Source: Syntrophales bacterium
Lineage (GTDB): Bacteria; Desulfobacterota; Syntrophia; Syntrophales; UBA2210
Reading direction: 5' to 3'
NCBI GenBank assembly: GCA_963662405.2
Contig: CAXXKT010000003.1
Coordinates: 384,001 to 448,000 of the forward strand
Length of the DNA stretch: 64,000 nucleotides
The translations under genes and the position numbers were made by a program. Shown here in pieces: positions 29,165 through 53,198 of this stretch (positions within the stretch are counted from its first letter, which is position 1; each line of letters opens with the position of its first letter). Below the pieces are notes generated by a model, which did not search any database, was not told the origin of the DNA, and saw nothing but the letters and a program-made list of their open reading frames with translations.

Positions 29165-29351
29165 TTATGAACTGGATGAAAAGGAACATGTCAGCCTTTG
29201 CGAGGCACTGGACCGGATCCTCAACAAAGGCGCCGTGATTGTCGGCGACGTCATGATCTCCGTTGCCGATATCGATCTCGTTTATCTGGGCCTGCAGGTC
29301 ATCCTGACCTCCGTGGAAACGGCCCGACACGAGGAAGGTCTGGTGCTATGA
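29157..29351 (+). CDS. GvpA-family minor protein (GvpJ/S-like)
   Basis: LDRILNKGAVIVGD..ISVADIDL. Confidence 0.88.
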   Translation: MSDYELDEKEHVSLCEALDRILNKGAVIVGDVMISVADIDLVYLGLQVILTSVETARHEEGLVL

Positions 29352-29737
29352 ACATGAGCGCGGGTTCCGGATTTTCCGATTTGGACAGATTTGAAACCTG
29401 TCCCCAAAGTGTGACGTCGCCGGCCATAAGCGATTTTGCAAAAACCATGACGCCACGGGCCAGGCAGGCATCGTCCGGTCATGTGAATCTTGATGGGGAT
29501 AAGAAAAAAAACGGTCTGGCCCAGCTTGTACTGACCGTGGTCAAACTCCTCCATGAACTCCTGGAGAAACAGGCGATCCGCAGGATTGACGGGGGAGGCC
29601 TTACAGATGAAGAGATTGAGCGTCTCGGTTTCACCCTGATGCGTCAGTCAGAGGAAATCGCGAGGATCGCCCTCGAATTCGGTCTCGAAAGCGACGATTT
29701 GAATCTTGATTTGGGACCTTTGGGAAAATTATTATAG
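29348..29737 (+). CDS. gvpK: gas vesicle protein GvpK
   Basis: GLAQLVLTVV.LL.ELLEKQAIRR..LNLDLGPLGKLL. Confidence 0.93.
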   Translation: MNMSAGSGFSDLDRFETCPQSVTSPAISDFAKTMTPRARQASSGHVNLDGDKKKNGLAQLVLTVVKLLHELLEKQAIRRIDGGGLTDEEIERLGFTLMRQSEEIARIALEFGLESDDLNLDLGPLGKLL

Positions 29738-30259: not shown

Positions 30260-31451
30260 GTGATTAACAGAGAGAGACGTTCAGGCCGGACCACGGATCT
30301 GCGCCGGCGGGCGGAAAACCGTCTGAAAGAGAAGGAGAAAACCCGGCGTGCGGATGCGGAAGATCGGATAAGCGAGTCGGAGACGAAGCGGCTTATCCAC
30401 GAACTGCAGGTGTACCGGATCGAGCTTGAGATGCAGAATGAGGAGCTGCGTCTCGCACAGAGAGACCTTGAAGCTTCACGGGCACGGTATTTCGACCTCT
30501 ATGACCTGGCGCCGGTGGGCTACATTGAGTGATAAAGGGTTAATCCTGGAGGCCAATCTCACGGCGGCCACCCTGCTGGGTGTGGCGAGAAACGCCCTGG
30601 TCAAAGAGCGTTTGGACAGCTTCATTCTCCCTGAAGATCAGGACATCTACTACCTCCACCGCAATCTGCTTTTTAAAACCGGTGAGCCGCAGGCATGCGA
30701 ACTGCGGCTGCTGTCCACCAGCGCAACTCCCTTGTGGGTGAGAATAGATGCGGCCTTGGCAACGGAGGAGGAGACCGGCAAACCGGTATGCCGCGCCTTG
30801 ATGAGCGACATCACCCAGCACAAGCAGGCGGAGCAAAATCTCCAGGATATCCTCGAAAGTCTCAGGAAGGCCGTCAGATCAACTATTCAGGTAATAATAT
30901 CGACCGTGGAGGCAAGAGATCCCTATACCGCCGGCCACCAGCGCCGGTCCGCGGATCTTGCCCGTGCCATCGCCACGGAGATGAAACTTTCCCAAGACAG
31001 GATTGAAGGCATCAGGATAGCCTGTTCCATCCATGACCTCGGGAAGCTATCCATACCTGCGGAGATATTGTCCAAACCAAGAAAGCTAACGGAAGACGAG
31101 TTTTCCCTGATTAAAGAACATGCAAGGAAAGGCTACGACATCCTGAAAAATGTAGAATCCTCGTGGCCGCTGGCGGAGATTGTCTACCAGCACCATGAAC
31201 GGATGGATGGTTCGGGCTATCCGAGAAACCTGAAGGGTGACGAAATACTCATGGAGGCCCGCATTTTGGCCGTTTCTGACATAGTCGAAGCCATGGCCTC
31301 CCACCGTCCCTATCGCGCCGCTCTTGGTATTGACGCGGTCCTGAAAGAGATTGATGACAACCGGGGGATTCTGTACGATCCCGAGGCGGTGGATGCCTGT
31401 CTGAATTATTCCGGGAAAAAGGTTTTCAATTTAAAGGTGCTTGATGATTAG
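30260..31451 (+). pseudogene. PAS-HD-GYP phosphodiesterase, frameshifted near 30521
   Basis: The LAPVGY frame stops at 30532 while the LSDKGLILEAN-PAS-HD-GYP continuation is in another frame. Confidence 0.75.
30418..30522 (+). repeat. 105-bp direct repeat, copy 2
   Basis: Matches 10971-11075 with one mismatch. Confidence 0.9.
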
Positions 31452-37572: not shown

Positions 37573-38808
37573 ATGGCGCACCGGCATTCGGGAGAAATTC
37601 AGCAAAGGGTCCGGCAGGCAGACAGAGATCTTTGGAATGCCCTGAAGAAGGAATCGACCGTTTCTCTCGTCGAACGAATCGTTGAAAACGCCGATGAGGA
37701 TGCGTTGGCAGTCCTTCATGATACGCGTACCGTTTTCTGCTACATGGGGAAGCGATTAAGGTTTGTCGAATTCCTCAATATACTGAAAGAGAAAAAAAGA
37801 AATGACCTGATAAGGTCCGGTTCCCTGATCGATGTTGATTACGTGGTGGAACGGGTCTATGATCTGACGGTGGCCAAGTTCCAGAATTTTCCCGTAAAGG
37901 ATCAAAAGAAGAAAGATCGAAAGAAGAAAGATCGAAGGAATGAGGAGGAAAAGCCAGATCGAGAATTCGCCGAAAATGTGGATTGCAGAAACTATTTCAA
38001 TGCATTCTTGATCAAGATGGAAGAGGTGCGGCGTGAGGGGAAGATAACATCTGAAATCGATGAGGAACAGGCGGCCGGTGAAATGCTGAAAATTCTGGTG
38101 TTCCGGCACTTCAGGCTTTCACTTAAAGAATGTCTTCGAAACAATGCACACTCTGTCCCTTATCAATGGAAGGTGGCCAGCACGAAAATCACCCTCTACT
38201 ATCCCCGGCATATGGGACCGGATCAATTTAAAACATGGCTTGAAGAAAATATCGACGTTCCTGGACCGAAGACAGATGTGAGATTGGAAAAGAAGCGCAT
38301 ACAACAGCGCATCGATGAAGAACTGAAAACAGGATACAGCGTTTCCTGCGATGAGCCATCTATCAATACTGAATTGAAAAGCGACGACAATCGGGCTCTC
38401 GAGGATCGCGAGGGGCAAAAATTTGTCGTGTCCTTGAGTGAGTGTGTGGCACGGGAAAAATCGGAGCATTTCACAGAACTGCGGCCAGCTATCAGGGCCC
38501 TCGGCTCGAAAGGCGTGTATAATCTGGTCCTCCGCATCTTTGCCGATATAACCGAGGGCGCCTACAACCTAAAAGAGGTCGCACAGAGCTTCGGGCTCAG
38601 CAAGGCATCTCTGAGCCGGTTTGCCGGTCCTGCCTGGTCGGGGAACGCTCGGCAGGAGATCCCCGATCTCTGGGCCAATACCGCCCATGTGCTTGCGGGG
38701 AATACCTTGTTTTCGGAAGTAGTCGAGAATGCAGGATTCGCAGGCGTAATCGATGATGTCTTGACCATGATCGCACCGGGGGAGGAGTGTGAAAATGGAT
38801 ACACGTAA
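37573..38808 (+). CDS. hypothetical helical protein with C-terminal sigma4-like HTH
   Basis: YNLKEVAQSFGLSKASLSRF HTH; otherwise unrecognised. Confidence 0.6.
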   Translation: MAHRHSGEIQQRVRQADRDLWNALKKESTVSLVERIVENADEDALAVLHDTRTVFCYMGKRLRFVEFLNILKEKKRNDLIRSGSLIDVDYVVERVYDLTVAKFQNFPVKDQKKKDRKKKDRRNEEEKPDREFAENVDCRNYFNAFLIKMEEVRREGKITSEIDEEQAAGEMLKILVFRHFRLSLKECLRNNAHSVPYQWKVASTKITLYYPRHMGPDQFKTWLEENIDVPGPKTDVRLEKKRIQQRIDEELKTGYSVSCDEPSINTELKSDDNRALEDREGQKFVVSLSECVAREKSEHFTELRPAIRALGSKGVYNLVLRIFADITEGAYNLKEVAQSFGLSKASLSRFAGPAWSGNARQEIPDLWANTAHVLAGNTLFSEVVENAGFAGVIDDVLTMIAPGEECENGYT

Positions 38809-39502
38809 GAATCTCTATTTTCTTCCTCTTATTGATGAGGCCCTGGGCAGTCATGAGCCGGAGGAAGCGTTGAAGAATGCCTTCACCGCCATACGCAGAC
38901 TCGGCAGGAAGCCCGAGTATGAAAGAGGATATACCCAGTTCAGGAGATTCATGAAGGCATACGTCGAAGCCTATTCGCACGTGCCCGGGTACGAACTCAT
39001 TATGCACGAAGCCATCTATCATCTGATCGACGATCTGGCCGCGGACACATACGAGGGATCAGAAGAGGAGAAACCGGCGCTCATTGAAGCATTGTCAAGA
39101 AACCCACAATGGCGGACTGCATACGAGCATGCGAAAGAGACACTGGCTGAGTTTCGCGCCCCTTCTCCTGAGTTGGCCATCGAGGTGTTGAAGGATGGCG
39201 AGACGATCGCCTCTCTTCCTGTATCGGAGATCCCCTTCAGCCTGACGGATATCGAGCCGGGGCGCTATACGGTACGTCTCTCCAACGGCAGGGTTCTCTG
39301 GGAGGGCCTCCTGGAAAAGAAGCACCTCCTCTGGTGGGAAGCGTATGGCCAAAGCGATCTTCCGATGGCGGCGAAAACCGAAGAGGATGCCCCTCGACCT
39401 ACGGTATCCGAATCTCTTATGGGCGGCGATGTGACAATGGATGTGATTCCTGATCTTCAAAGCGGGGAGATACGCTTCAGTCATGGAGAGCAAAGACGAT
39501 AA
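38795..39502 (+). CDS. hypothetical protein, helical N-terminus and beta-sandwich C-terminus (anti-sigma-like)
   Basis: Overlaps upstream gene; FSLTDIEPGRYTVRL motif. Confidence 0.55.
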   Translation: MDTRKNLYFLPLIDEALGSHEPEEALKNAFTAIRRLGRKPEYERGYTQFRRFMKAYVEAYSHVPGYELIMHEAIYHLIDDLAADTYEGSEEEKPALIEALSRNPQWRTAYEHAKETLAEFRAPSPELAIEVLKDGETIASLPVSEIPFSLTDIEPGRYTVRLSNGRVLWEGLLEKKHLLWWEAYGQSDLPMAAKTEEDAPRPTVSESLMGGDVTMDVIPDLQSGEIRFSHGEQRR

Positions 39503-41174
39503 CAGGACCATCGGCAAAACAAAGACCGCAATCCTTTTGAAAGACACACGGGAACCGATAGCGATCATCACCGAGATATACGCGCAGGCTACCTCAGCAG
39601 ACCCTGAAGTGAAGATCACTTTTCATGGTCCCGTCACAGTCGAGGACAAAACGATTGTGCACCTTGAAACGGTCATCTTCCCGATCGTCAGCACCATATC
39701 GCATTCTCTCGGCCTTCCATCCCGCAACTTTGACATTTCCATTTCGAATGTGGGCGCCTCGTCAGCGAGAGATCTGGGCCTGAAGATCGCGGGTTTCTCC
39801 GCAGACGTTCCTTTCTTTCTGTCCATGCTCTCCGCCGGCACAGGAGCTGGTCTTCGACAGGATGTGATCGCTACGGGGCACATTGCCTCACTGGCCGGAG
39901 ATGTCGCGCCGGTTCTGGGTATCCCAGCCAAGATGGAAGCCGCCGTCGCTGCCGGCACTATCTCGGAGTTCCTCTTCCCGGATATTGAACATGATATGTC
40001 CGCAGCGCTCCTCATACCGAAAGACGAATTGAGTGCAGCTAAAAAATCCTTCTACCGATACAAAGGGGAAATCGGCCTCACAACCATCAGAGATATCCAT
40101 GACGCGATACAGATCTTTTTCACCGACGATGCCGTCGCCGTGTCTGCCCTTGCGAAGGGATTTTTCGACGGAAAAGCCGAAGCAACAAGGGACAACACCC
40201 CCCTGAACCGATCCGTCGCATTCTTTCTCGATGACAACGAAAATCGTTTCTGGCGCACCTTGAAAGACCTCCTGTTCCGCAAAGAATCCGAAAAGGCACG
40301 ATCCCTCATCCAGACTTTCATCGACTACCATCGTGCGCGAGAACGGTACCCGCGCAATTTCGGCGAGCGGCTGTACCGGCTGGCCATGTCACTGCCGCTT
40401 TTGGTCAGGAAACTCGATGGCCTCTTCCCGCTTCTCTCGGTCGATCAATGCATCGCCCTGTCTCGCCATGCGAAGCCAGCGGACCACACCGATGTCCAGC
40501 TGCTCTATCGACTGACATCACCGAATGAATTCACGAAACACATAGCTGACGAGAGTTCGGAAGCCGCAGGTACAGCACATGAAGAGGATCCGGAAGATCA
40601 GATGGTACGGAAGGTCCTGTTTGAACTGAGCGAGGTACATCTTGCACGAAAGATCGGCATGCCTCTGGATGAAGCACGGGCAAGCTATTTCCCCGGTACG
40701 ATCACCATAAAGGATGCTTTTGAATTCAACCAGGCAATTACCAGCTTCTATATTCACCTGATGCGGCATACGCAGTCACCCGAAGGTCATGTGTCATGGG
40801 ACGCCGCCGCATCCGAGGCATTAGATCGGTTGGAGGATTCATTTCGCAACAGGGGAGGCTATGCGACCGCCCTGACCGAAGCAAAAACGGGTATAAAGGG
40901 AGGCCTCCGTTTCGTATTCGACGTGATGACCGATAGCGAAAAATCGGTCATGAAGGCAAAGTATACGGCCATGATTCTCAAGGAGGCCATCGGTTCACTC
41001 GACTGGGAGGCGAAGGTTCGATGCGCCCGGCATATGCAGGATAGATACGGGCGGCATTTGCCGGAAGCATTCAAGGAAATACAACCCGAACAGCTTGCCC
41101 ATCGTTTGGAAGAAGCTCTGCGGTTTCTGTCGGAAGGAGAGAAAGATATAGATCACTGGCTGAGAACACACTAA
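39483..41174 (+). CDS. Lon/S16-type protease domain fused to C-terminal helical domain (paralog 1)
   Basis: GFSAD (Ser106), ATGHI, APVLGIPAK (Lys150) match Lon proteolytic motifs; no Walker motifs seen. Confidence 0.75.
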   Translation: MESKDDNRTIGKTKTAILLKDTREPIAIITEIYAQATSADPEVKITFHGPVTVEDKTIVHLETVIFPIVSTISHSLGLPSRNFDISISNVGASSARDLGLKIAGFSADVPFFLSMLSAGTGAGLRQDVIATGHIASLAGDVAPVLGIPAKMEAAVAAGTISEFLFPDIEHDMSAALLIPKDELSAAKKSFYRYKGEIGLTTIRDIHDAIQIFFTDDAVAVSALAKGFFDGKAEATRDNTPLNRSVAFFLDDNENRFWRTLKDLLFRKESEKARSLIQTFIDYHRARERYPRNFGERLYRLAMSLPLLVRKLDGLFPLLSVDQCIALSRHAKPADHTDVQLLYRLTSPNEFTKHIADESSEAAGTAHEEDPEDQMVRKVLFELSEVHLARKIGMPLDEARASYFPGTITIKDAFEFNQAITSFYIHLMRHTQSPEGHVSWDAAASEALDRLEDSFRNRGGYATALTEAKTGIKGGLRFVFDVMTDSEKSVMKAKYTAMILKEAIGSLDWEAKVRCARHMQDRYGRHLPEAFKEIQPEQLAHRLEEALRFLSEGEKDIDHWLRTH

Positions 41175-41188
41175 TCGAGGAGGAGAAA

Positions 41189-41770
41189 ATGTCTACGATA
41201 GATAGTCTTTGTGATGCCCTGGATGAAGTGGCAATTGCTCAACATGTGGGGATTGCCCATGATGAAGCACGGGCTTTTTACAGCCCGCGGAAAAACACGG
41301 TTTCCAGTTTTGATGAATTCAGCGATATGATCGGCGAGTATTACAGCTATCACATCGGGAAATGCGTCGTTCAAGGCGGCAGAATTGCGAGCTATGAAGC
41401 GGTGGGCCGGGCCAGCGAAATTGTGGAGAATGCATACAAACGCCAGGGAGGCAATCTCATGTCCGCCTACCGGAATGCGAGCGATGGAACCAACGGGGGC
41501 ATGAGGGTCATATTGGATGTAATCGCCGATCGGCTGAAGGAAGAATCAGTCGAACGATATGTCCGGCATGCCTTTAACAGGCATGTCGATCCGAGCTCAT
41601 GGGATCAGAAAGTAGGGATCATCCGACAATTTATTGACCGGAACCGGCATCTGCTTGGTTCGGCTATCGATTCTTCGCATCCGGAACGGTATGCGCAGAA
41701 TTACGACGAACTCATACGAGCGTTCATGGATGCACTGAAAAAATCATCGAACCTCTTCAGAAAATATTAG
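41189..41770 (+). CDS. uncharacterised helical protein (paralog 2)
   Basis: GAGGAGG RBS; aligns by eye with the C-terminus of 39483..41174. Confidence 0.8.
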   Translation: MSTIDSLCDALDEVAIAQHVGIAHDEARAFYSPRKNTVSSFDEFSDMIGEYYSYHIGKCVVQGGRIASYEAVGRASEIVENAYKRQGGNLMSAYRNASDGTNGGMRVILDVIADRLKEESVERYVRHAFNRHVDPSSWDQKVGIIRQFIDRNRHLLGSAIDSSHPERYAQNYDELIRAFMDALKKSSNLFRKY

Positions 41771-41781
41771 GAGCAGGGGCC

Positions 41782-42351
41782 ATGTCGACACGGTTGGAGG
41801 AACTTATCGAGAGTATTGATCCGGTAAACATTATAGACAGGGTATCCATCGCTGTAGATGAAGCCTTCAATTCCTTTAAGTATGACAGACCCATAGGGTC
41901 ATTCGACGATTATGAGAAATACATGTCCGAATTTGTGCAACACATAGAACAGGTCGTCATCGGTTACAGGACGACCCATCCGGACGCCAGGGATTTTTTC
42001 TGGACACGGTATTCGAATCTTGTAAACAGGAAACAGGGACCGGATGCATGGAAGATGAACTACGAAAAGGTCCTTACCGGTAAGAGCGGCGGAACATACC
42101 AGCTTCTCAAAGATGTGGCTGCTATGATCCTGGAGGAGCAAAGCGGGCGACAGATCTCGACAAGAGTCTGGAACTTCTGGAATTCCCTGGACAACGATGA
42201 AAAGCTGGATACGGTGAATGAATTCTTGCGTAAATTCGGGCGAATTTTGCCGTCTGAGTATACCAGTGGGGTTTACTTGAAAATAAATTTCCCCCAGGTG
42301 CTGGAGAAATATCCGCAATTGCTGTTGGAGATCAGACGTGCTGTGGGGTAG
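41782..42351 (+). CDS. uncharacterised helical protein (paralog 3)
   Basis: VDEA..SF..TGKSGG..SLD..EK..FGRILP aligns with paralogs. Confidence 0.78.
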   Translation: MSTRLEELIESIDPVNIIDRVSIAVDEAFNSFKYDRPIGSFDDYEKYMSEFVQHIEQVVIGYRTTHPDARDFFWTRYSNLVNRKQGPDAWKMNYEKVLTGKSGGTYQLLKDVAAMILEEQSGRQISTRVWNFWNSLDNDEKLDTVNEFLRKFGRILPSEYTSGVYLKINFPQVLEKYPQLLLEIRRAVG

Positions 42352-42431
42352 GGGAACAAAAAAAGGCTACAAGCAGTTTTTATTGCAGATCTTACGTCTT
42401 ATAGCTTTGCATAAACAAAGGAGGTGACTTG

Positions 42432-43577
42432 ATGCATCAAATTATTTTCTATCCCGTGGGTAACGGTGATACCAGCCAAATCATACTAGAGAATGGCAAG
42501 CGAATCCTGTTCGATTTTAGGCATCTGAAGAAAGCGGAGGACGGAAAGGAACCGGAAATTGATTTGGCTGCTCGCTTAAAAAAAGAATTGAAGGATTGCG
42601 ATAGGACGTCTTTCGATGTCGTCGCCTTCACACATGGAGACGCTGATCACATCGAGAACAGTACGGAATTCTTTGAATTACTCCATGCTGAGAAGTATCA
42701 TGGTGATGGTCGAATCAAAATTAATGAGCTCTGGGTCCCCGCGGCAATGATCCTCGAAACGGCGGCGAATGATGAACAGAGCGCCGAATTCGTCACCTGG
42801 AGGCAAGAGGCTCGTTACAGATTGAAAGAGGGGAAAGGCATCAGGGTTTTCTCAAAGCCAGACAAGCTGAAAGAATGGTTGAAAGAAAACGATCTAACGG
42901 TTGACTCCCGGCGGCATATGATCACCGACGCAGGACAACTTGTTCCCGAATTCACCATAGGGAACGATGGAGTTGAATTCTTCTGCCATTCCCCATTTGT
43001 CATGAGCGTTGATGATTGCGACGAAGGTCAAAGAAATGAAGCTGCCCTCATCTTCAATGTCCGTTTCCAAGCAGGCTCAAACATTTTTGACTATTTTGCA
43101 GTCGGCGACTCCGAATGGGAAACACTGGAAGAAATCATCCAAACAACTAAGAATCATAATAATCAGGATCGGCTTGCATGGGACATCTACAGCTTGCCGC
43201 ATCATTGTAGCTATAAAACCCTGAGCGACGAAAAAGGGGAAAAGGAGACTATACCCAAGCCTTTGATCAAAGAGTTTCTATTGCAGGGAAAAGACAATGC
43301 CTACATCGTTAGTTCTAGCAACCCTATCGAAGATACGAAGGAAGGTCTGGAACAAACACAGCCACCTCATATCCAAGCGAAAAAGTGCTACGAGCGTTAC
43401 CTTACGGAAATCGGAGGGGCAAAGCTTCTGGTCACTATGGAGGAACCGAATAGAACAAAGCCAGAGCCTCTGATATTTGAAATCGATAGTAACGGTATCA
43501 GCCGAGGAGGGAAAATCCTAGGCTCAGGAATAACCGTCATAACCTCCAGACCAGCACCGAGGGCTGGTGTAAAATGA
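42432..43577 (+). CDS. metallo-beta-lactamase-fold hydrolase with C-terminal PRAG tail
   Basis: VGNGD, THGDADH, GD, PHHCS; ends SRPAPRAG-VK. Confidence 0.85.
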   Translation: MHQIIFYPVGNGDTSQIILENGKRILFDFRHLKKAEDGKEPEIDLAARLKKELKDCDRTSFDVVAFTHGDADHIENSTEFFELLHAEKYHGDGRIKINELWVPAAMILETAANDEQSAEFVTWRQEARYRLKEGKGIRVFSKPDKLKEWLKENDLTVDSRRHMITDAGQLVPEFTIGNDGVEFFCHSPFVMSVDDCDEGQRNEAALIFNVRFQAGSNIFDYFAVGDSEWETLEEIIQTTKNHNNQDRLAWDIYSLPHHCSYKTLSDEKGEKETIPKPLIKEFLLQGKDNAYIVSSSNPIEDTKEGLEQTQPPHIQAKKCYERYLTEIGGAKLLVTMEEPNRTKPEPLIFEIDSNGISRGGKILGSGITVITSRPAPRAGVK

Positions 43578-45961
43578 CTGTCGAATTCATCTTTTTCGGA
43601 GATCCATATCCTGACCTCAGCCCTGATAATTTGAGGCAGAATGTATCAAAAAAGATTTTAAAGCTCTGCAAGGCAAGCAAAGAGTTTCGGATCGTTGAGC
43701 TGCGGTATAGAAGTCAAGATGCAAGGGTTTCTGACATCATCATCGTCGATTGTATGAACGATCAGATCCCTACTAGGAATCCCCACGGCATTAAAGTGCG
43801 GGAAAGGCTCGCTCTTGTTTTTACCCCAGAGATACTGCCAGAAGTAAGGGCTCTAAGGGCTAACTTTCCGATACTCCCACATATGATTTACGTCTCGCCG
43901 GGTGAACCAGCATTGCTGTGCCTGTATACGGACACGTGGCAGGCACTGGAGAGGACCTGGACACCACATAAACATCTGCAGCAGATACTATCGTGGCTCT
44001 CTGATTCGGCCAAGGGAACACTGCACCGGGGTGATCAACCCTTAGAGCCACTCTATTTCGAGAGTCTTTTTGAGATCGTATTGCCCCCTGATCTTGATGA
44101 AAAGGTTGAAAACCCCAATTTTGTCTTAATCCCTCAAGCCATAAAGATTGAGCGACCACCTTTGAATTTCAAAGTAGTTCGATGCTATTTCCAAGATAAA
44201 AAGTTGATATCAGCACAAGGGAAAGTGAAGGATAAAGTGTCAAGGATACCACTAATCGGAGCTCCCTCCGGGAAATACATATTCGTTGATTCATTGTTTG
44301 TACCACATGAGAGCAATGAAAATAAGAAGCTACCTCGCTTTGAAATCTTGACGGTTACCGGCCCATCTATAGTGCACGGCATTATCGAGCAGTATCCTCG
44401 GACACTAGGAGAGCTTGACGATCAAATGATGGCGCGAGGTGGTTCAATCCTAGAGTCGCTGAAAAATGTAATTCAAGAGAAAGCTCATGGCGGAATAATC
44501 TGTGAGGATTCAAGTGAATGCTTACTCATCCTGTCAATGCAACTGAAACGCGCAGCTGATGCCCAGCCTGAAGAAAAACACAAGAAAGCATTTGAAATCA
44601 TATCCGATCTTGCCGGACTCGGTGAAAAAACAGGTGCGTTGACGAAGAGCCCCACTGACGAAAAGTGGTACAATATTCCTACAGATAACAAGCAAGACTG
44701 GCGCAAAATCAAGATATGGCCCATCGAGGTTAAAACCGCCAATACGCAGGATTTAGCCCGTGTTGCGTCTGATGTTGACTTATTGACGGCAGATTTCATG
44801 GGAGTGTTAGCCGGTGTTGGTGCCTTGGGAGGATCTTTGGCAGAAATCTGGTCAAAGGAACGCTGGGGGGGGTGGAGCTTCATCGATCCGGATATTGTAA
44901 AATCACACAACATTATACGCCATATTGCCAGAGACTTTCATGTCGGTGCTTTTAAAGCCGATGTAGTTAAAGACATGGTGGCATACAATTATCAAGACGG
45001 TTATTATCATGCCTTCTCCATTCACAGAAGCGCCAATGATTTTAATTCAGATGTTGTTAGAGAAACTATTTCAAAAGCAGAGTTTCTTGTGGATGCCACA
45101 ACGACCATAGAGATACCTCGTGATTTAGCTCAGAAAGATGATGTGCCTCGCTCAGTGTCCGTATTCCTAACTCCTAGTGGGAAAGGGTCCGCTCTTCTAA
45201 TGGAATCGGAGGATCGTTTGCTGAGGTTGGATGCCCTTGAAGCACAGTATTATCGTGCTATTGTCAATGAGGAATGGGGAAAAGATCATTTAGAGGGACA
45301 CAAAGGAAATATAAGAGTCGGAGCCGGATGCCGCGATGCATCCGCCATTATCTCCTATGAAGCTATCCAGTTACATGCTGCCGTAATAGCACGCCAAGTT
45401 AGGCTATTACGAGATAAGGCTGCGGCACGCATCCAGGTGTGGTCTGGCAACTCTGTTACAGGTGCGCTTGCAGCTTATACGATTCCCGTTTATGCAGTCA
45501 ATAGATTTAACTGCGATGGTTGGCGTGTGATCATGGACTATGGCTTAAAAGAAAAACTGGCTGCAATAAGGATGTCTCACCTTCCCAATGAGACCGGGGG
45601 TATTATACTTGGGTATATAGACCACAAATTGAACCATATTTACATTGTTGATGTCCTTAACGCACCTATTGATAGTGAGGCAGATCTGACAGGGTTCACA
45701 AGGGGAGTACAGGGCTTGAGGGCTGCACTCGGTGAGGTTTGCCAGAGGACAGCTGGCATCGTCGGCTATATTGGCGAATGGCATTCCCATCCAGAATTTA
45801 CATCTGCCTATCCTAGCTCACTCGACCGCACTCTTATCAAAGAACTTGCAGCTGGTTTGGAACTAGACGGACATCCTGCTTTGATGATCATCGTTGGACG
45901 AACCGGAGAAGTTTCTGTGTCGGTTAAAGAAGCAGGGACTCGTGAATGTACAGTTATGTAA
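43574..45961 (+). CDS. prokaryotic E2-E1(ThiF)-JAB fusion protein
   Basis: E2 PEV..FP..PH..LCL; E1 GVGALG, DPDIVKSHNIIRH, GAGC; JAB ETGG, GEWHSHP..S..D. Confidence 0.88.
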   Translation: MTVEFIFFGDPYPDLSPDNLRQNVSKKILKLCKASKEFRIVELRYRSQDARVSDIIIVDCMNDQIPTRNPHGIKVRERLALVFTPEILPEVRALRANFPILPHMIYVSPGEPALLCLYTDTWQALERTWTPHKHLQQILSWLSDSAKGTLHRGDQPLEPLYFESLFEIVLPPDLDEKVENPNFVLIPQAIKIERPPLNFKVVRCYFQDKKLISAQGKVKDKVSRIPLIGAPSGKYIFVDSLFVPHESNENKKLPRFEILTVTGPSIVHGIIEQYPRTLGELDDQMMARGGSILESLKNVIQEKAHGGIICEDSSECLLILSMQLKRAADAQPEEKHKKAFEIISDLAGLGEKTGALTKSPTDEKWYNIPTDNKQDWRKIKIWPIEVKTANTQDLARVASDVDLLTADFMGVLAGVGALGGSLAEIWSKERWGGWSFIDPDIVKSHNIIRHIARDFHVGAFKADVVKDMVAYNYQDGYYHAFSIHRSANDFNSDVVRETISKAEFLVDATTTIEIPRDLAQKDDVPRSVSVFLTPSGKGSALLMESEDRLLRLDALEAQYYRAIVNEEWGKDHLEGHKGNIRVGAGCRDASAIISYEAIQLHAAVIARQVRLLRDKAAARIQVWSGNSVTGALAAYTIPVYAVNRFNCDGWRVIMDYGLKEKLAAIRMSHLPNETGGIILGYIDHKLNHIYIVDVLNAPIDSEADLTGFTRGVQGLRAALGEVCQRTAGIVGYIGEWHSHPEFTSAYPSSLDRTLIKELAAGLELDGHPALMIIVGRTGEVSVSVKEAGTRECTVM

Positions 45962-45988
45962 TTTCTTCCTGGGGGAAAGGAGGACCAT

Positions 45989-46486
45989 ATGAAGGATATC
46001 CTAAGCAAAATTTCGTCATACAATCTTTTCAATTACCTTCTACCGGGCATTATTTTTGCGGTTCTTGCCGAACGAATTACAGTTTACAAGATAATCCAGA
46101 GCGACATAATCGTTGGGCTATTTCTCTACTATTTTTTAGGCTTGGTGATCAGTCGTATAGGATCGTTAATAATTGAGCCCGCTATGAAGAAGGTCTCTTT
46201 CGTAAAGTTTGCTTCATACAAAGACTATGTCAGTGTTTCCGCTAAGGACCCGACTTTAGAAACATTATCTGAAGTCAACAACATGTATAGGACATTATGT
46301 GCCCTTTTTTTAATGCTCCTCGCGACTAAAGCTTTCGAATCCATCACGATGTGTGTCAATATGAGCGGCAAAATATCAGCATACATCCTTTTTGTTGTGC
46401 TTTTAGTGCTATTCGCACTTTCCTACCGTAAGCAAACAAAATACATCACCAAACGCATAGAGGCTGGCAAAGATGAGCATCGTTAA
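45989..46486 (+). CDS. multi-TM membrane protein
   Basis: AGGAGG RBS; about four hydrophobic segments. Confidence 0.75.
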   Translation: MKDILSKISSYNLFNYLLPGIIFAVLAERITVYKIIQSDIIVGLFLYYFLGLVISRIGSLIIEPAMKKVSFVKFASYKDYVSVSAKDPTLETLSEVNNMYRTLCALFLMLLATKAFESITMCVNMSGKISAYILFVVLLVLFALSYRKQTKYITKRIEAGKDEHR

Positions 46487-47328
46487 ATCGCTGTCCGTCG
46501 GAGACGGGGACATGTTTTATATCAAGCACGGTACAGACAATTTTACGATCATTGATTGTTGCTTGGAAGAGGCATGCCGTGAAGAGATCGTATCAGAGTT
46601 GAAACGCGAAAGCGCTGATAAATCGATTAAGCGGTTTATCTCAACCCACCCGGATGACGACCATACTGAACTTTTACTGTGTACGGAATGAGGCGACCAA
46701 GAAAGATTACACTGATGATTTCGACCGGTATTGCAGTTTAAGGGACTCCGACAAGGCCTTTTACCTCTATGAAGGCTGTACGCGAAAGTGGTTAAACAAG
46801 AACGACGAAGGAGAACACGGTAGCTCCGGGATTACTATTCTGTGGCCAGACAGGACAAACGAGTATTACAAGGCCGCTTTGGTGGCTGCCAAAAATGGAA
46901 AGGATCCAAATAATATCTCGCCGATTATCAAGTACAATCTGCGTGGTGGAGCCACATTCTTGTGGATGGGCGATATGGAATCCGATTTTATGGAGAACAT
47001 TGAGGATAGTCTCATCCTTCCGGCGGTAGACATATTATTTGCACCACACCATGGGCGAGACAGCGGCAAGATCCCACAGTCACTTCTTGATCAAATGTCT
47101 CCTAAGATCATCCTTATCGGGGAAGCGCCATCAATGCATCTGAATTATTACGACGACTACAACTCTATCACTCAGAACTCTGCAGGGGATATCATATTTG
47201 AGTGTACTGGTACACTGGTCCACATATACGGTTCTAATGACTCATACGAAGTTGATTTTTTAGAGGACTACTTATGTGACAATACTCATGGGTACTACAT
47301 CGGAACGCTCGACTCCTTTCAGCGATAA
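46473..47328 (+). pseudogene. second MBL-fold (ComEC/Rec2-like) hydrolase, frameshifted near 46665
   Basis: SVGDGD..IIDC..THPDDDH in one frame; MGD and APHHGR in the next frame. Confidence 0.78.
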
Positions 47329-47367
47329 TAAAAAAACCTTCACATATTTTTCAAAAAGGCACTATCT

Positions 47368-47395
47368 TGAAACAATAATTCGTTCCCCTCCGCTT
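47368..47395 (+). promoter_or_regulatory. TGAAACAAT-N12-TCCGCTT motif, copy 1
   Basis: 22 bp upstream of the ATPase start; same motif and spacing at 50542. Confidence 0.55.
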
Positions 47396-47417
47396 ACTGG
47401 GATAGAAAGGAGGTTCC

Positions 47418-49889
47418 ATGAGCGAAGAAAAGGCGATTATCAAAATGGCAATGCCCTTGATGCTCAGAGCAAGGGTTGAAAATTTTTTGCATGATGAAAA
47501 CAGAAAAGGGTGTGATCCCCGGCTGTTTCCCGCTCCCGTTTCTCTGGAGCCGCCCTTTTCCCCCATTACCTATTCCGATAATTTTCAGAACAGTTCATTG
47601 TGTGATGAAATATCCTACGAGGCAATTCCTGACAGCAGGCAGTTGGTACGTCTTCAGGTTTGGCTTTCCCCGGATCAGAAATATGATTGGCTGAAGACAG
47701 AGATCTTTCTGAAGCAGCTGTCCCAGATATCTCATCGCATCGGATTCGAAATCATAGGCAACAGCGGGAAAATCCATATTGGTTTTTTGGTTCATCAAGA
47801 TGATATCCCCTTTCTTGACATCAGTTGCCGGGGTATGTTCGAGCGATGCGAATTAACACAAGCCCCATCAGTGGAAGGATTTGATGCATTAGTAGACCCC
47901 AAAGCACAGGTCAGCTTCATGGACTATTATCCGCCTCCTCCCTATTCACACTTGCTGACCTCTCCCAATGAATTCAAAGTGAGTCCATATCGATCGCTCA
48001 TTGCGGCTCTCATGACGATTGATCCTCCCGATTGGGGGTTTTACCAGGCACTGTTTCAACCGGTGCATCCCGATCACAACTGGCACAGGAATGTCGAAAC
48101 GCTTCTGGATGTCGAATATATGTTCAAGCTCATAAGCAGCCAAAACTCTCAGCGATACCTTCAGCAAGCGCCTTCCGGCGATCTTCGACAGATGGCCAGA
48201 GAGGTGGAGACCAAGTCACATAACGATAAGCCATTTTATTTTCTTGCCTGCAGGGTAGGTGCAATTTCATATCGAGATCCGCAGCGATATTTGAAGTCCC
48301 TGTCCGTGTTTTTTAACTTATTCCAGCATGGCAGAAGACCCATGGGGGTTATAACTGACCGTGAATATCGTCTTCACCTATCAATCGAAGAGATCAAGAC
48401 CATGTTCCAGCGTGGAGTAACCTATCGACCGGGATTCCTGGTAAATTCGTTTGAACTTTCAGGCCCTGTCCACATCCCCAATGCCGACATATTGGAATTC
48501 AGAACCCCTCGACTCAATCTGATCAATACCGTACCGGTTCAAAATGAGGATATCCATGAAGGGACCCCGATCGGGACCTACGAATATACCGGCACGGTTT
48601 ACCCAGTGTGTATTCCCTTGCATCTGCGACCCCGCTCTACCCATATCATTGGAAAATCCGGAATGGCCAAATCCACGACAATGGCGCATATGATCCTCGA
48701 TGATATCAATCGAGGTATGGGCGTTGCGGTAATCGATCCCCATGGGGACCTTATCGAAGACCTGTTGATCCGCATTCCTGAAGAACATATCGAAAGAACG
48801 GTCTACTTCGACCTGACCATCCCGGATTATGTCCCTATCTGGAATCCTCTCCAGAGATCGAGGGGACAGGACATCAGCCGTACAACCGAAGACATCATCT
48901 CTGCACTGAAAACGGTATTCCATTCCGGCTGGGGAGACCGAATGGAACATCTTCTCCGCCACGGACTGTATGCCCTGCTGCATATTCCGGGAGGCACCCT
49001 CCAGGATCTTTCCAACCTTCTCTTCAAGAGGGACAAGAAACGGTTGATTCGCGATGAACCTTTATTAAAGCTGCTTTTGCAGGCTGTGGATAATGATGTA
49101 TCAAGACGCTTCTGGGAATTTCATGTGCGAAATTATACTGCCGAGGCCTTCGACCCTCCGAAGCATAGACTGGATAAAATCCTTCTGTCAGGGAAGGCGG
49201 CGGTGATGCTTTCTCAACCCGACAACATGATCGATTTCAGACCAATCATGGATGAAGGCCGTATTCTTCTGGTGAAGCTTTCCCTGATAGGGAGAGAGCT
49301 GATGAAGGTCCTGGGCTGCTTCATTCTGTCTCTTCTGCATTTGACCGCCCTGGGAAGAAGCGACGTCCCGGAGGATCGCCGGAGACCGTTTCAGATATAT
49401 GTCGATGAGGCCCACCGGTTCGTCACTGATACCCTGGAAGACCTGATCGTCGAAACGAGAAAATTCAATGTGGGGTTGACGCTGGCACATCATTTTTTCA
49501 GCCAGTTCGGAAATATAAAGGTCGATGCCTTGTCCAGTGTGGGCACGACTATCATCATGAATGTCGATAGAAAGGACGCTGCATACCTCGTAAAGGACCT
49601 CAGGGAAGAAGTCTCCGCAAACGACATCACACAACTCAATCTGGGCGAAGCCATTGTGCGCATCGGCACCGATGTCGTCAAAATCAACACTCTGGGAAAA
49701 TTGACTGTTCCCTCGGACAACTTCAAAGATCAGATACTGCAACATTCATTGAGTCATTACTATCAACCAGAAAAGCTTGTCCGGGAGCGTATCCGAAACA
49801 AGAACGATCGATACAGTGTAGCCAATACTCATGCCATTCCCCCCAAACAGTACGATGAAGAAGAACTCACCTATGATGACGGATTCTGA
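47418..49889 (+). CDS. HerA/FtsK-VirD4/TraD-like P-loop ATPase
   Basis: THIIGKSGMAKST (Walker A variant), VIDPHGDL, IYVDEAHRF (Walker B), ETRKFNV.LTLAH. Confidence 0.85.
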   Translation: MSEEKAIIKMAMPLMLRARVENFLHDENRKGCDPRLFPAPVSLEPPFSPITYSDNFQNSSLCDEISYEAIPDSRQLVRLQVWLSPDQKYDWLKTEIFLKQLSQISHRIGFEIIGNSGKIHIGFLVHQDDIPFLDISCRGMFERCELTQAPSVEGFDALVDPKAQVSFMDYYPPPPYSHLLTSPNEFKVSPYRSLIAALMTIDPPDWGFYQALFQPVHPDHNWHRNVETLLDVEYMFKLISSQNSQRYLQQAPSGDLRQMAREVETKSHNDKPFYFLACRVGAISYRDPQRYLKSLSVFFNLFQHGRRPMGVITDREYRLHLSIEEIKTMFQRGVTYRPGFLVNSFELSGPVHIPNADILEFRTPRLNLINTVPVQNEDIHEGTPIGTYEYTGTVYPVCIPLHLRPRSTHIIGKSGMAKSTTMAHMILDDINRGMGVAVIDPHGDLIEDLLIRIPEEHIERTVYFDLTIPDYVPIWNPLQRSRGQDISRTTEDIISALKTVFHSGWGDRMEHLLRHGLYALLHIPGGTLQDLSNLLFKRDKKRLIRDEPLLKLLLQAVDNDVSRRFWEFHVRNYTAEAFDPPKHRLDKILLSGKAAVMLSQPDNMIDFRPIMDEGRILLVKLSLIGRELMKVLGCFILSLLHLTALGRSDVPEDRRRPFQIYVDEAHRFVTDTLEDLIVETRKFNVGLTLAHHFFSQFGNIKVDALSSVGTTIIMNVDRKDAAYLVKDLREEVSANDITQLNLGEAIVRIGTDVVKINTLGKLTVPSDNFKDQILQHSLSHYYQPEKLVRERIRNKNDRYSVANTHAIPPKQYDEEELTYDDGF

Positions 49890-50502
49890 AATGCCAGGCG
49901 ATTGCAAAAGCATCGTTGAGACAGTAATCGGGCTTCTCGAAGAGGACACCATAGCCCGGGAAGTAGAATATCCTGTCAACCAGGCAACAAAAGAATTTGA
50001 ATTCGCCTTTGAGGAACCCATAACTCCGGCAGGATTCAACGGGATCATTGCATCCTTTGTCACACACATCAATAAGAGAGGCTTGCGTTTTCCCAGAATG
50101 TTGACCGATCGGGAAGCTCTGGCGGAAGCAGTGTATTTACTGGACCGTTATTCCGACGCGGAAGGGCCCGATCGGTATGCGGCGATCATGACTATCGTCG
50201 GAACCAACGGCCGGGAGGAAATGGAGAAGAAACTTCTTATGCTGGCAGAGATTATAAAAGTAATCGAGAGAGAAAAATATCGCCAGTGGGTGTTTCATCA
50301 CCATTTCCGGAGCCTGGAATGGGAATGCCGGTGCCGAATCGTATCGCTGCTTACAAAATCGCTGTCTCATAGTGCCTTTCCCGAATTGGAACGTCTCAAA
50401 CCGGCACAGCTGGTGGAATGCTTCGAAGAACTGATTGACATAGATCTTATCGGTCAAAACATCGTGAAACAGCTCGGCTGTGAAAAGGAGAAACAAATAT
50501 AG
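49873..50502 (+). CDS. uncharacterised helical protein (paralog 4)
   Basis: LLEEDTIAREV..FNGIIASF..EKY..SLEWE..PAQL aligns with paralogs 1-3. Confidence 0.75.
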   Translation: MMTDSEMPGDCKSIVETVIGLLEEDTIAREVEYPVNQATKEFEFAFEEPITPAGFNGIIASFVTHINKRGLRFPRMLTDREALAEAVYLLDRYSDAEGPDRYAAIMTIVGTNGREEMEKKLLMLAEIIKVIEREKYRQWVFHHHFRSLEWECRCRIVSLLTKSLSHSAFPELERLKPAQLVECFEELIDIDLIGQNIVKQLGCEKEKQI

Positions 50503-50541
50503 AAAGATTCATTATAGTCCCACACTTCTAAAAGAGCATTC

Positions 50542-50569
50542 TGAAACAATGCCTACGGTTCATCCGCTT
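50542..50569 (+). promoter_or_regulatory. TGAAACAAT-N12-TCCGCTT motif, copy 2
   Basis: Upstream of the primase-xis-int genes. Confidence 0.55.
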
Positions 50570-50620
50570 CATAGGTAAAGACCTTTGACGAACAAGGGAA
50601 TCTGACCGGTGAGGCTACCT

Positions 50621-51631
50621 ATGAAATCCGTTAGCCACAAAAGAACGACTGCATCAAAGATCGGTCTTTTTCGATCAGTCTTTTCCGGTTTGCCCCATGT
50701 CTATGGAACATATGATGTTGATACAAAACGTTCCTGGCAAGTAAAGGAATCGGTAACGGCCAGGACTATCCTTGATCATCTCAAGGGCAATAAACATTTC
50801 GGCCTCTATCTGCTTGTTAACGACACTATCTGGGCCATTGCAGCCGATTTCGATCACCATGACCCGACAACCCCTTTAGACTTTATCAGGAAAGCCGGGC
50901 ATTATCGATTGCCCGCCTACCTCGAGATCAGCAAATCCAAAGGATTCCATGTATGGATATTTTTCCAGGAAGGTGGGGTCAAGGCATACAAAGCCCGGTT
51001 AGTGGTGAAGGCCATTCTTGAAGAAATAAAAGCCGTCGACACAGAAGTATTTCCGAAACAGGACTTTCTTGATTCACTGTCTTCTTACGGCAATTTCATC
51101 TACACTCCCTTATTCGGCCGGCTTGTTCCGGAAGGCAGGACTGTATTTGTCAATGTGGATACCTTGAAAGCCTTTGAAGACCAATGGAAGTTTCTCGCAA
51201 CCATTCAGAAGGTCGATGAAGCCCTTCTGGATGAGGTTATTGATATAAACAACCTCTCACGATCAAATCAAACGGACCTGAAAAAAGTCTCTCTAATAGA
51301 TAGCCCTGTACATTATCATACAGCCCTCCCACCCTGCATTCAGAGCATGCTCCAGAACGGCGTGAGGAGATTCCAGCGCTCCAGTTGCTTCAGATTAGCC
51401 GTGCAACTCAGAAAAACAGGCTTACCTTTTGATGCTACACTCGCGGTTCTCCAGGCCTGGTCACTCAAAAACAAACCGGAAGATGGAAAGCGGATAATTA
51501 CTGCCGAGGAAATCATGGAACAAACATTGTGCGCGTACCGTAAATACTATTCAGCGTATGGATGTGAAACGCCCGAAATGAAACCGTTTTGTCACGAAGA
51601 CTGCCCGGTAAAAAAGAAAATAAGCATTTGA
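50621..51631 (+). CDS. archaeo-eukaryotic primase (TOTE-primase-like) with Cys-rich C-terminal domain
   Basis: ADFD, SKSKGFHVWIFF, EVFPKQ, GNFIYTPL; PPC..C..C..C cluster like PriL Fe-S domain. Confidence 0.8.
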   Translation: MKSVSHKRTTASKIGLFRSVFSGLPHVYGTYDVDTKRSWQVKESVTARTILDHLKGNKHFGLYLLVNDTIWAIAADFDHHDPTTPLDFIRKAGHYRLPAYLEISKSKGFHVWIFFQEGGVKAYKARLVVKAILEEIKAVDTEVFPKQDFLDSLSSYGNFIYTPLFGRLVPEGRTVFVNVDTLKAFEDQWKFLATIQKVDEALLDEVIDINNLSRSNQTDLKKVSLIDSPVHYHTALPPCIQSMLQNGVRRFQRSSCFRLAVQLRKTGLPFDATLAVLQAWSLKNKPEDGKRIITAEEIMEQTLCAYRKYYSAYGCETPEMKPFCHEDCPVKKKISI

Positions 51632-51643
51632 GGAAGAGAGAAC

Positions 51644-52030
51644 ATGGAAGTGGATTTCGATCTTGAAGCAATCTATGGACATTCTATCAGTTCCAAAGAA
51701 CTTGCCAAATTTCTTGGACTTGACCGGCGCACAATAGTTAAGTATGCTGCCTTATGGGGTGGTGTGGAAGTTGCACCCGGCATCTGGCGGTTCTTTGAAA
51801 AGAGAATAGAGGAGGTCCTCAATGCCGAGCAAAGTTTTGAAAAGAGGAACATTGCGATACCGGGCAAATGTAAATGTGCAAGGCCAGAAGAGGCAAAAGT
51901 TGTTTCCAGACGACAGCAAGAAGTCTTATCAGGCGGCTCTCTTTTGGGAAAAAGAAACAAAAATCGAATTGGAGAAGCAGTTATCCCAGATAAATTCGGT
52001 ATCTTTAGCGATAGGACAATGGTCGAATGA
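51644..52030 (+). CDS. excisionase-like HTH protein
   Basis: SSKELAKFLGLDRRTIVKY..GIWRF; directly upstream of integrase. Confidence 0.72.
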   Translation: MEVDFDLEAIYGHSISSKELAKFLGLDRRTIVKYAALWGGVEVAPGIWRFFEKRIEEVLNAEQSFEKRNIAIPGKCKCARPEEAKVVSRRQQEVLSGGSLLGKRNKNRIGEAVIPDKFGIFSDRTMVE

Positions 52031-52946
52031 GTACTTGACAGAAGCTGAAAACCGATTTGTCAGAGATACCTTCAAAGAAAAAAAAGCTGCCTTTGCTAAG
52101 TTTTACAAAGATGCAGGCCTACCACGCGAATTTCTCATTCACGATCTCACAATTACAATTTGCAGGAAATTTCTGCTAAAGCAAATGAAGGAGAGATCAG
52201 GCTATGCCGCCAATAAGGACAGAAAAAATCTTGGAGCCGCATGGAGATGGGGCTTTGATAACATGGAGGGATGGCCTAAAGGCGTAAACCCCTTTTTAGC
52301 TATCAAAAAGTTTCCCGAAAAGAGAAACCCGCGATATGTGCCACCTGAAGATGACTTCTGGAAGGTCTATGAACAGGCACAAGGTCAAGACAAAGTCATG
52401 CTGTTAGTATTTCTTCATCTGGCAGCCAGAAGATCTGAGGTATTCCGGATGAAGTGGGCCGATGTTGATTTTAAAAACAACCGCATCTGTCTCTGGACCC
52501 AGAAGCGAATGGGCGGTCATACAGAATATGACTGGCTGCCTATGACGTCTGATCTTCGGAACGCGTTACTGCAGTGGTGGCAAGAACGGCTCATGCAAAC
52601 AGGCGTTGATAAAGAACATGTCTTTATCTGCCTTGCAGAAACTTGCTTTTGCGAAGACTATTACGGAAAGCCCTTTACAGTCAGGCAACATTTTATGGAA
52701 AGCCTGTGTAAGAAGTCGAAAGTAAAACCTTTTGGGTTCCATGGAATAAGACATTTGACTGCATCAATCCTTTACAAGAAAGGCTATCCTTTGGCCGTCA
52801 TCCAAGCGATATTGAGACACGCAAATCCGAATACGACAGCGCGTTACATTCATAGCCTTGGATTAGAGGAAACGAGGGAAGCACTTGAGGAAGGTCTGAA
52901 AGGTCCTGCTGAAGTGATTGAATTTCAGAAAACAAGTATCATATAA
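51822..52946 (+). CDS. tyrosine recombinase/integrase
   Basis: AARRSE, HGIRH, LRH, TARY catalytic residues; adjacent to tRNA. Confidence 0.95.
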   Translation: MPSKVLKRGTLRYRANVNVQGQKRQKLFPDDSKKSYQAALFWEKETKIELEKQLSQINSVSLAIGQWSNEYLTEAENRFVRDTFKEKKAAFAKFYKDAGLPREFLIHDLTITICRKFLLKQMKERSGYAANKDRKNLGAAWRWGFDNMEGWPKGVNPFLAIKKFPEKRNPRYVPPEDDFWKVYEQAQGQDKVMLLVFLHLAARRSEVFRMKWADVDFKNNRICLWTQKRMGGHTEYDWLPMTSDLRNALLQWWQERLMQTGVDKEHVFICLAETCFCEDYYGKPFTVRQHFMESLCKKSKVKPFGFHGIRHLTASILYKKGYPLAVIQAILRHANPNTTARYIHSLGLEETREALEEGLKGPAEVIEFQKTSII

Positions 52947-53046: not shown

Positions 53047-53121
53047 TGGTAGTCCCACGGGGAATTGAACCCCGGTTTCCGGCGTGAGAGGCCAGCGTCC
53101 TAACCGCTAGACGATGGGACC
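53047..53121 (-). tRNA. tRNA-Glu(CTC)
   Basis: GGTCCCATCGTCTAGCGG..CTGGC-CT-CTC-AC-GCCGG..GGTTCAATTCC..ACCA cloverleaf. Confidence 0.96.
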
Positions 53122-53124
53122 ATA

Positions 53125-53198
53125 TGGCTGGGGGACCAGGATTCGAACCTGGGTTGCAGATTCCAGAGACCTGAGTCCTACCGCTAGACGATCCCCCA
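53125..53198 (-). tRNA. tRNA-Gln(CTG)
   Basis: TGGGGGATCGTCTAGCGG..CAGGT-CT-CTG-GA-ATCTG..GGTTCGAATCC..GCCA cloverleaf. Confidence 0.96.

Follow-up and report, generated by a model that had tools for sequence, protein, structure and literature searches.

Which protein does a ubiquitin-type ligase act on when neither a ubiquitin-like protein nor a CD-NTase is encoded beside it? This question is raised by two overlapping genes at positions 42432 to 45961 of a 64,000-nucleotide stretch of DNA from a Syntrophales bacterium (assembly GCA_963662405.2, contig CAXXKT010000003.1, positions 384,001 to 448,000 of the forward strand), which we analyzed as a whole and refer to as the window. The first gene codes for a hydrolase of the metallo-β-lactamase (MBL) fold and the second for a fusion of E2, E1, and JAB domains. 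An earlier note on this DNA, made from the sequence alone, had named the MBL protein as the probable modifier. Our analysis identifies the pair as an ordinary copy of the named anti-phage system 6A-MBL, from which it differs in nothing essential, and the conserved end of the MBL protein makes it very probable that this protein is used as the “ubiquitin” of its own system. Judging from the sequences and by analogy, we regard it as likely that an integrated genomic island carries the pair as a 6A-MBL anti-phage system, whose MBL protein would be conjugated by a mechanism like that of CBASS, the anti-phage systems whose signaling is based on cyclic oligonucleotides. The finding is real but not novel: the idea of an MBL protein that is its own ubiquitin is already in print (PMC11601596), where conjugation by MBL pathways is asserted.

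Identity of the gene pair and its two proteins

Both genes are read from the plus strand, with the following signals and domains.

42420–42424, plus strand: ribosome-binding site GGAGG, read directly from the sequence and spaced by 7 nt from the MBL start codon ATG at 42432
42432–43577, plus strand: MBL-fold hydrolase of the 6A-MBL system, 381 amino acids (NCBIfam NF058524, “6A-MBL_enzyme”)
43574–45961, plus strand: E2-E1-JAB fusion (“cap2_3”), 795 amino acids (NCBIfam NF058523)
43688–44089, plus strand: E2 (UBC-like) domain of the fusion, residues 39–172, with the candidate catalytic cysteine C116 (codon 43919–43921) and H103 (Pfam Prok-E2_A, 4.7e-24)
44771–45448, plus strand: E1 adenylation domain of the fusion, approximately residues 400–625, with the glycine-rich loop G414/G416/G419 and the candidate catalytic cysteine C586 (codon 45329–45331) (ThiF and profile matches)
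45518–45934, plus strand: JAB/JAMM metallopeptidase domain of the fusion, residues 649–787, with E673, H737-S-H739, S748, and D751 (PADLOC, Pfam, and PDB matches)

Both proteins score above the NCBIfam equivalog cut-offs for the anti-phage 6A-MBL system, and the pair is therefore a member of it. The MBL protein reaches 406.9 bits (7e-122; cut-off 220) over profile positions 1–346 of 346, and the fusion 597.5 bits (3.6e-179; cut-off 320), E-values that put the identification far beyond chance. All features of membership are present: the MBL family, the order E2-E1-JAB, the adjacency on one strand with the MBL gene first, and the catalytic residues. The TGA stop of the MBL gene (43575–43577) overlaps the ATG of the fusion (43574–43576) as ATGA, so that the coupling described in the earlier note is confirmed in the sequence. 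In 79 of 80 related loci (the best 80 of 196, and hence nearer relatives), the fusion follows directly after the MBL gene on the same strand; the fusion gene lies in two frames in loci L016 and L054 and is ended by a contig edge in a few others. The open reading frame (ORF) that the gene-listing program gave for the MBL protein begins with a TTG at 42429, one codon upstream of the ATG at 42432 to which the ribosome-binding site is spaced.

In 2006, Iyer, Burroughs, and Aravind introduced this type of operon as row 6a of their Table 1, in a description that calls its MBL a “specialized version” (PMC1779556). The “6a” system described by Lau et al. has a metallohydrolase together with an E2/E1/JAB protein, and hypothetical proteins on its flanks (10.1101/2022.04.27.489752). 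The earlier note, which had called such operons known from comparative genomics but poorly characterized, was right in the first part; the second part holds incompletely, as the system has a name and is cited as anti-phage. The anti-phage activity of 6A-MBL was reportedly established by van den Berg et al. in 2024 (Cell Host Microbe 32:1427), to whom citing papers credit it. A review of 2026 credits the same authors with 6A-MBL as a component of phage defense (PMC13276650), and 6A-MBL stands among the “known jumbo phage defense systems” listed in a preprint of 2025 (10.1101/2025.09.30.679545). The Ledvina preprint nowhere mentions an MBL or a lactamase. When 151 genomes from the order were sampled, the fusion family exceeded its cut-off in only 5, and it did so in none of 3 genomes from the genus; the window copy falls within a small clade, where its nearest relatives come from metagenome-assembled genomes of Syntrophaceae and Smithella, with up to 85% identity.

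The fusion carries the residues that a conjugating enzyme would use. We aligned it with 35 homologues that are 43–78% identical to the window protein. H103 and C116 of the E2 domain, G414, G416, G419, and C586 of the E1 domain, and E673, H737, S738, H739, S748, and D751 of the JAB domain are invariant in 35/35. The candidate cysteines that had been read from the motifs LCL (L115-C116-L117) and GAGC (G583-A584-G585-C586), together with the HxH..D motif of the JAB domain, are thus real features of the family. PADLOC ties the fusion to E1-E2 and JAB models of the CBASS type (JAB, 8.5e-24), and Pfam Prok-JAB matches residues 660–779 (7.6e-12). The Pfam ThiF match on residues 411–518 (2e-5, 24.3 bits) lies under the cut-off of 28.1, and the NCBIfam Cap3 model, at 1.2e-9 but 38.6 bits (cut-off 200), is not an equivalog of the fusion.

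Structural comparison relates the fusion to Cap2 and Cap3 of CBASS. A profile search of the PDB returned the Cap3-type peptidase 9ild (4.8e-10), MccB (2.8e-5), and Cap2 (PDB code 7to3; 5e-4), and the profile matches of the E1 domain also include MoeB and ThiF-type enzymes. A search with the single sequence matched 9ild alone, in the JAB domain (3.8e-8). In a Foldseek search with the AlphaFold2 (AF2) model of the fusion (predicted local distance difference test (pLDDT), 82.5), the top match was Cap2 7to3 (9.1e-24), with 661 columns aligned over the E2 domain, the linker, and the E1 domain, and the JAB part matched the Cap3-CD-NTase complex 9ild (5.7e-9). C586 sits in a low-confidence loop of the model (residues 579–590), as expected of the mobile catalytic-cysteine loop in an E1.

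The MBL protein has no family match in Pfam. Its PADLOC matches are MBL models associated with defense (RTasMBL, 1.8e-12; LmuA, 2.5e-11), and its sole match in the single-sequence PDB search was marginal and judged spurious. In an alignment of 64 sequences (A2), H68, D72, D226, and H258 of the metal site are invariant and D70, H73, H186, and H257 are each kept at 90% or more; the window protein itself carries all eight. The AF2 model (pLDDT 91.2, predicted TM-score 0.90) is confident up to about residue 360 and shows the α-β sandwich of an MBL. It does not show a β-grasp fold, and its best matches are MBL enzymes; the protein could function as a ubiquitin-like protein would, but falls outside that fold family. 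The closest folds are the MBL domain of ComEC (PDB code 9ic4; 7.3e-13) and then Pce (PDB code 1wra; 4.5e-11), with just 15–16% identity and TM-scores of 0.45–0.69 to the ComEC and Pce structures (9ic4; 1wra and 2bib). With ComEC and Pce as the best fold matches, the chemistry points to phosphodiester hydrolysis, and the activity, guessed from the fold alone, is probably that of a phosphodiesterase or nuclease.

A conserved glycine at the end of the MBL protein

The part of the MBL protein that would make it a modifier is its C terminus, which comprises two segments.

43512–43568, plus strand: flexible C-terminal tail of the MBL protein, residues 361–379, ending P-R-A-G379; presumed site of activation (pLDDT and tail counts)
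43569–43574, plus strand: two-residue cap V380-K381 after the glycine; a propeptide that the JAB domain would presumably cut off (read from the sequence, with removal inferred)

The C terminus reads ..TSRPAPRAG-VK, followed by the stop codon, and the tail ..SRPAPRAG-VK is thus present where the earlier note had placed it. Residues 364–378 have a pLDDT below 50 in the AF2 model and are predicted to be disordered, and the last ∼20 residues as a whole are predicted to be flexible.

Among the 120 closest cluster representatives of the MBL protein (69–91% identity), the pattern ..[ST]xPxP[RK]AG is found in 120/120. The protein stops exactly at the glycine in 85 of them and runs 1–6 residues further in the other 35, where the extensions are VK, AK, VR, AR, IK, Y, C, KA, SR, KDE, KCQPNL, and others. 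The nearest relatives of the window protein carry AR, AK, VK, VR, or IK after the glycine, a position at which most of the family has nothing. In the 80 loci, 65 MBL proteins end at the glycine, 14 are extended by 1–6 residues, and one (L023) is truncated. Conservation of the tail glycine had been set beforehand in the earlier note as the test that could refute its proposal; the glycine proved to be conserved, in all 120 closest representatives and in 79 of the 80 loci.

The signal extends to more distant relatives. We took 150 representatives from a library whose clusters were formed at 50% identity; 67 of them were near full length. Of these 67, 49 contain [RK]xG among their final 14 residues (background, 0.093 per internal 14-residue window) and 34 have glycine as the last residue (glycine frequency, 0.060); binomial figures derived from these tails overstate the significance, the sequences being kin.

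Such a glycine, mostly the last residue but in some proteins followed by a few residues of variable sequence, conforms to a ubiquitin-like pattern, and the conserved motif, with which a flexible linker ends, is placed like a recognition peptide. The capped form fits a scheme in which the JAB domain trims VK and the E1 domain activates the glycine, as far as sequence patterns can indicate this.

Some family members depart from the common tail. In MBL forms of 482–660 amino acids, another C-terminal domain replaces the tail motif; a metagenome scan with one of these tail-less long forms (P0126) recovered an ordinary tailed MBL of 392 amino acids, followed by a fusion and then by an ORF of 379 amino acids. 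One long form (P0182, 660 amino acids) has an extra C-terminal region with a metal-binding-like motif, CPCGSG..HCH. In another protein (P0199, 442 amino acids), the MBL part is joined to a JAB domain, and in a third (P0161), the sequence PASRAG is followed by a hydrophobic extension of 30 residues. A doubled motif, ..PRAG[WY]RAG, ends the MBL protein in three loci (L048, L052, and L079).

Proposed conjugation and competing explanations

In a scheme that takes type II CBASS as its model, the JAB domain would remove V380-K381 and thereby free the carboxylate of G379, which the E1 domain would adenylate with ATP. The MBL protein would then be handed on as a thioester to C586 and from there to the E2 cysteine C116, and would finally form an isopeptide bond with a lysine in a cellular or phage protein; the JAB domain may also undo the conjugation. 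The MBL protein would thus be the “ubiquitin” and at the same time the active enzyme, in all probability one with phosphodiesterase or nuclease activity, which conjugation would prime, place, or restrain during infection.

A complex prediction bears on whether the two proteins bind. The input consisted of residues 230–795 of the fusion, ATP, Mg, and the MBL protein, and three controls were run. The outcome was “weak support,” with a median ipSAE of 0.54 (best of the three controls, 0.00), at least 76% of the contacts in common between runs, and a partner pLDDT of at least 83. In the calibration of this procedure, 116 of 157 solved complexes passed the mark, as did 2 of 215 mismatched pairs, and scores of 0.60 or less comprised just 18 of the 157 solved complexes plus both passing mismatches. 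The prediction slightly raises the odds that the MBL protein binds to the fusion. Together with the conserved glycine, terminal or capped, this one weak prediction supports the view that the MBL protein is the probable modifier.

Several points weigh against this interpretation. The evidence for processing and conjugation is all comparative or predicted. The complex prediction, with its grade of “weak support,” returned no interface and hence does not place the tail in the site of the E1 or the JAB domain. The tail counts at the loci, taken from the best 80 of 196, favor nearer relatives. In alignment A2, G379 is invariant and R377 is kept at 90% or more, but the rows of this alignment were picked for having tails, so that the invariance of G379 is biased; free of this bias are the tail counts from the 120 closest representatives, the 67 diverse representatives, and the 80 loci. 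Finally, 18 of the 67 diverse representatives are without [RK]xG in their last 14 residues.

The surroundings of the pair offer no other modifier. Pfam, PADLOC, and NCBIfam searches of the 12 proteins whose genes lie from 37573 to 51631 gave no match to a CD-NTase or a ubiquitin-like family, which agrees with what had been noted for this locus before. The gaps beside the pair (42352–42431 and 45962–45988) are too short to hold a further gene. Among the gene families that flank the pair in the 80 loci, there is no recurring ubiquitin-like gene.

The comparison with type II CBASS is close in two respects. The fusion aligns with Cap2 over the E2 domain, the linker, and the E1 domain, and with Cap3 over the JAB domain; moreover, in both systems an enzyme of the operon itself, and not a β-grasp protein, would offer its C terminus. 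In contrast to type II CBASS, the 6A-MBL pair has neither a CD-NTase nor an effector that senses cyclic nucleotides, as judged from the same searches of the same 12 proteins. The Cap2-like and Cap3-like parts are found here in one chain, which in sequence resembles Cap2 only marginally (5e-4 in the profile search). Whereas the conjugated enzyme of CBASS is a signal synthase, that of 6A-MBL would be a hydrolase. Because no CD-NTase is present, 6A-MBL is not a CBASS, although it would be CBASS-like in its working.

The Bil and Bub systems share the logic of E1, E2, and JAB in phage-defense loci, and their JAB proteins are described as able to cut a pre-protein to a bare reactive C terminus, which parallels the proposed removal of VK (PMC11601596). 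These systems have a true β-grasp ubiquitin-like protein, their E1 and E2 are not fused but separate proteins, and Bub acts via serine oxyesters. In contrast, the 6A-MBL pair has no gene for a ubiquitin-like protein and keeps both catalytic cysteines. The nuclease domain of ComEC and Pce, which resemble the MBL protein in fold, differ from it in having neither a C-terminal glycine tail nor a conjugation partner. Within the 6A-MBL family itself, most members end at the glycine, and the clade of the window protein has a two-residue cap.

The E1 domain might activate the tail glycine for some other chemistry, such as thiocarboxylation of the ThiS/MoaD kind, synthesis of a peptide-nucleotide as by MccB, or self-cyclization, or the tail might be an autoinhibitory plug whose removal by the JAB domain turns on the hydrolase. 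MccB does rank above Cap2 in the profile matches of the E1 domain (2.8e-5 and 5e-4, respectively), with MoeB and ThiF-type enzymes also present, and the clade of the window protein, as its two-residue cap shows, requires one proteolytic step or more. H103, C116, and C586, however, are kept in all 35 fusion homologues and are not needed for adenylation only or for sulfur transfer, and the Pfam scan gave neither a rhodanese match nor one to a sulfur-transfer domain. The cap, in turn, is absent in most family members, so that the JAB domain cannot be solely an activating protease. We therefore consider other chemistry or a plug clearly unlikely.

Alternatively, the MBL protein could be just an effector or a regulated partner, docked to the ligase by its tail, while the fusion activates some other protein, either an unlinked ubiquitin-like protein or one of phage or cellular origin. 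Such an arrangement is allowed by the complex prediction, which came without an interface, and is in keeping with the family members that have no tail. In addition, the genome holds further ThiF-like (1.8e-15; G000:C3:366934-367281) and JAB-like (8.4e-14; 369618-369950) matches on the minus strand, ∼15 kb to the left of the window. On the other side, no gene for a ubiquitin-like protein is found in or beside the operon or recurs in the flanks of the 80 loci. A docking peptide need not stop at glycine, yet the MBL protein does so in 65 of the 80 loci and in 85 of the 120 homologues. Furthermore, Cap2, the closest solved relative of the ligase part, was bound to the C terminus of the neighboring enzyme, as stated in the titles of PDB entries 7tsx and 7tsq. 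A role as a mere partner is thus improbable. The ThiF-like and JAB-like matches may themselves represent another E1/JAB pair in this genome.

If the MBL protein is indeed conjugated as proposed, 6A-MBL would be a second case, beside type II CBASS, in which a bacterial immune enzyme takes the part of ubiquitin itself, and it would bear on how ubiquitin-type ligases were first used, a question to which the window copy itself adds little. Modestly useful are the family-wide count of glycine-ended and capped tails, the clade with the two-residue cap, which suits a test of maturation by the JAB domain, and the recurring third genes 3′ of the fusion.

Downstream genes and genomic surroundings

We surveyed 76 related loci with downstream sequence for a third gene, defined as a gene on the same strand that starts at most 200 nt past the fusion. 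This gene codes for a patatin-like phospholipase in 21 loci, for an MBL protein like PDC-M48B (see below) in 11, usually followed by a four-helix membrane protein of ∼237 amino acids, and for a four-helix membrane protein of ∼267 amino acids in nine, which are cyanobacterial (e.g. L024, L027, and L037). It is absent in 16 of the 76 loci. These classes resemble the effector classes of CBASS.

In the window, two genes follow the fusion, and the membership of both in the system is uncertain.

45989–46486, plus strand: PDC-M48A, a hydrophobic protein of 165 amino acids that starts 28 nt after the fusion stop (PADLOC PDLC04670, 2e-65)
46473–47328, plus strand: PDC-M48B, a second MBL-fold gene, broken (PADLOC PDLC04673)

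PDC-M48A also lies directly after the fusion in a close relative (L004) but was not detected at any of the remaining 79 loci. PDC-M48B is split into the frames 46473–46691 (profile positions 1–66, 6e-34) and 46654–47328 (profile positions 76–291, 7.4e-98). Compared with an intact homologue of 292 amino acids (L085:1140-2018), the break is a 38-bp deletion just past the HPDDDH motif. At this deletion, the window agrees without any difference with contigs that three runs of a single sample yielded, a sample that is possibly the source of the window; this agreement argues solely against a slip of assembly. A PDC-M48A/B pair without a 6A fusion above the cut-off occurs in another genome (G098), on a contig of only 2.5 kb, and PDC-M48, which PADLOC lists as a candidate defense system, may be separate from 6A-MBL.

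One could go further and read 6A-MBL as a modular sensor-effector pathway instead of a nuclease system complete in two genes; in such a pathway, the conjugated MBL protein would sense or make a signal and the third gene would kill. The capped MBL protein would then be a pro-enzyme, the JAB domain would be an obligatory maturase in addition to an off-switch, and PDC-M48A with the broken PDC-M48B would be the remains of an effector module; we consider this reading unlikely as a whole. That the cassette is carried along by the island in a state of decay and has lost its function in this genome is highly improbable: the adjoining PDC-M48B is broken, but both 6A-MBL frames are intact, full length, and equivalog-scoring, keep every conserved catalytic residue, and have preserved their ribosome-binding site and ATGA coupling.

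The pair lies within a ∼20-kb block of mostly unassignable genes, with a gas-vesicle cluster to its left. To the right of the pair, the following features were assigned, of which the ATPase and the primase still belong to the block.

47418–49889: HerA/FtsK-like ATPase
50609–51631: AEP-TOTE primase
51822–52946: tyrosine integrase, adjoining tRNA-Glu
53047–53121, minus strand: tRNA-Glu
53125–53198: tRNA-Gln

Housekeeping genes follow to the right of the integrase and tRNA-Glu. This arrangement fits an integrated mobile island with defense cargo, of which the listed features together look like the right end. No direct repeat of the 3′ end of tRNA-Glu (att) was found, and the left border of the island is therefore undefined. 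Counts of promoters and terminators did not exceed the expectation from shuffled sequence.

Two paralogous ORFs of ∼190 amino acids (41189–41770 and 41782–42351) precede the MBL gene. We rejected them as parts of the system, since they have no homologue in the 80 loci and no match to a family, to PHROG, or to the Atlas. The ORF at 41782–42351, which ends in ..RRAVG, was also considered as a second substrate and rejected: only 1 of its 38 homologues of at least 184 amino acids ends in glycine, and most end in arginine or lysine, so that its likeness to the MBL tail is put down to chance. Further upstream, three co-directional ORFs (37573–41174) code for proteins of 411, 237, and 563 amino acids, none of which matches a PADLOC model; the protein of 563 amino acids has a weak match to the C-terminal domain of Lon protease (2.2e-4). 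A 40-nt stretch at 40642–40681 is repeated with 70% identity in the next gene, at 41235–41274.

The gas-vesicle cluster contains the following genes.

15576–29737: gas-vesicle cluster, with GvpL/GvpF at 17711, 18724, and 26041, GvpK at 29198, a CDC48-like AAA ATPase at 15576, and an ArsA-like ATPase at 27161

It is followed by two PAS-HD-GYP genes that have a 300-nt repeat in common (30806–31105 and 32826–33125), the two copies being 93% identical.

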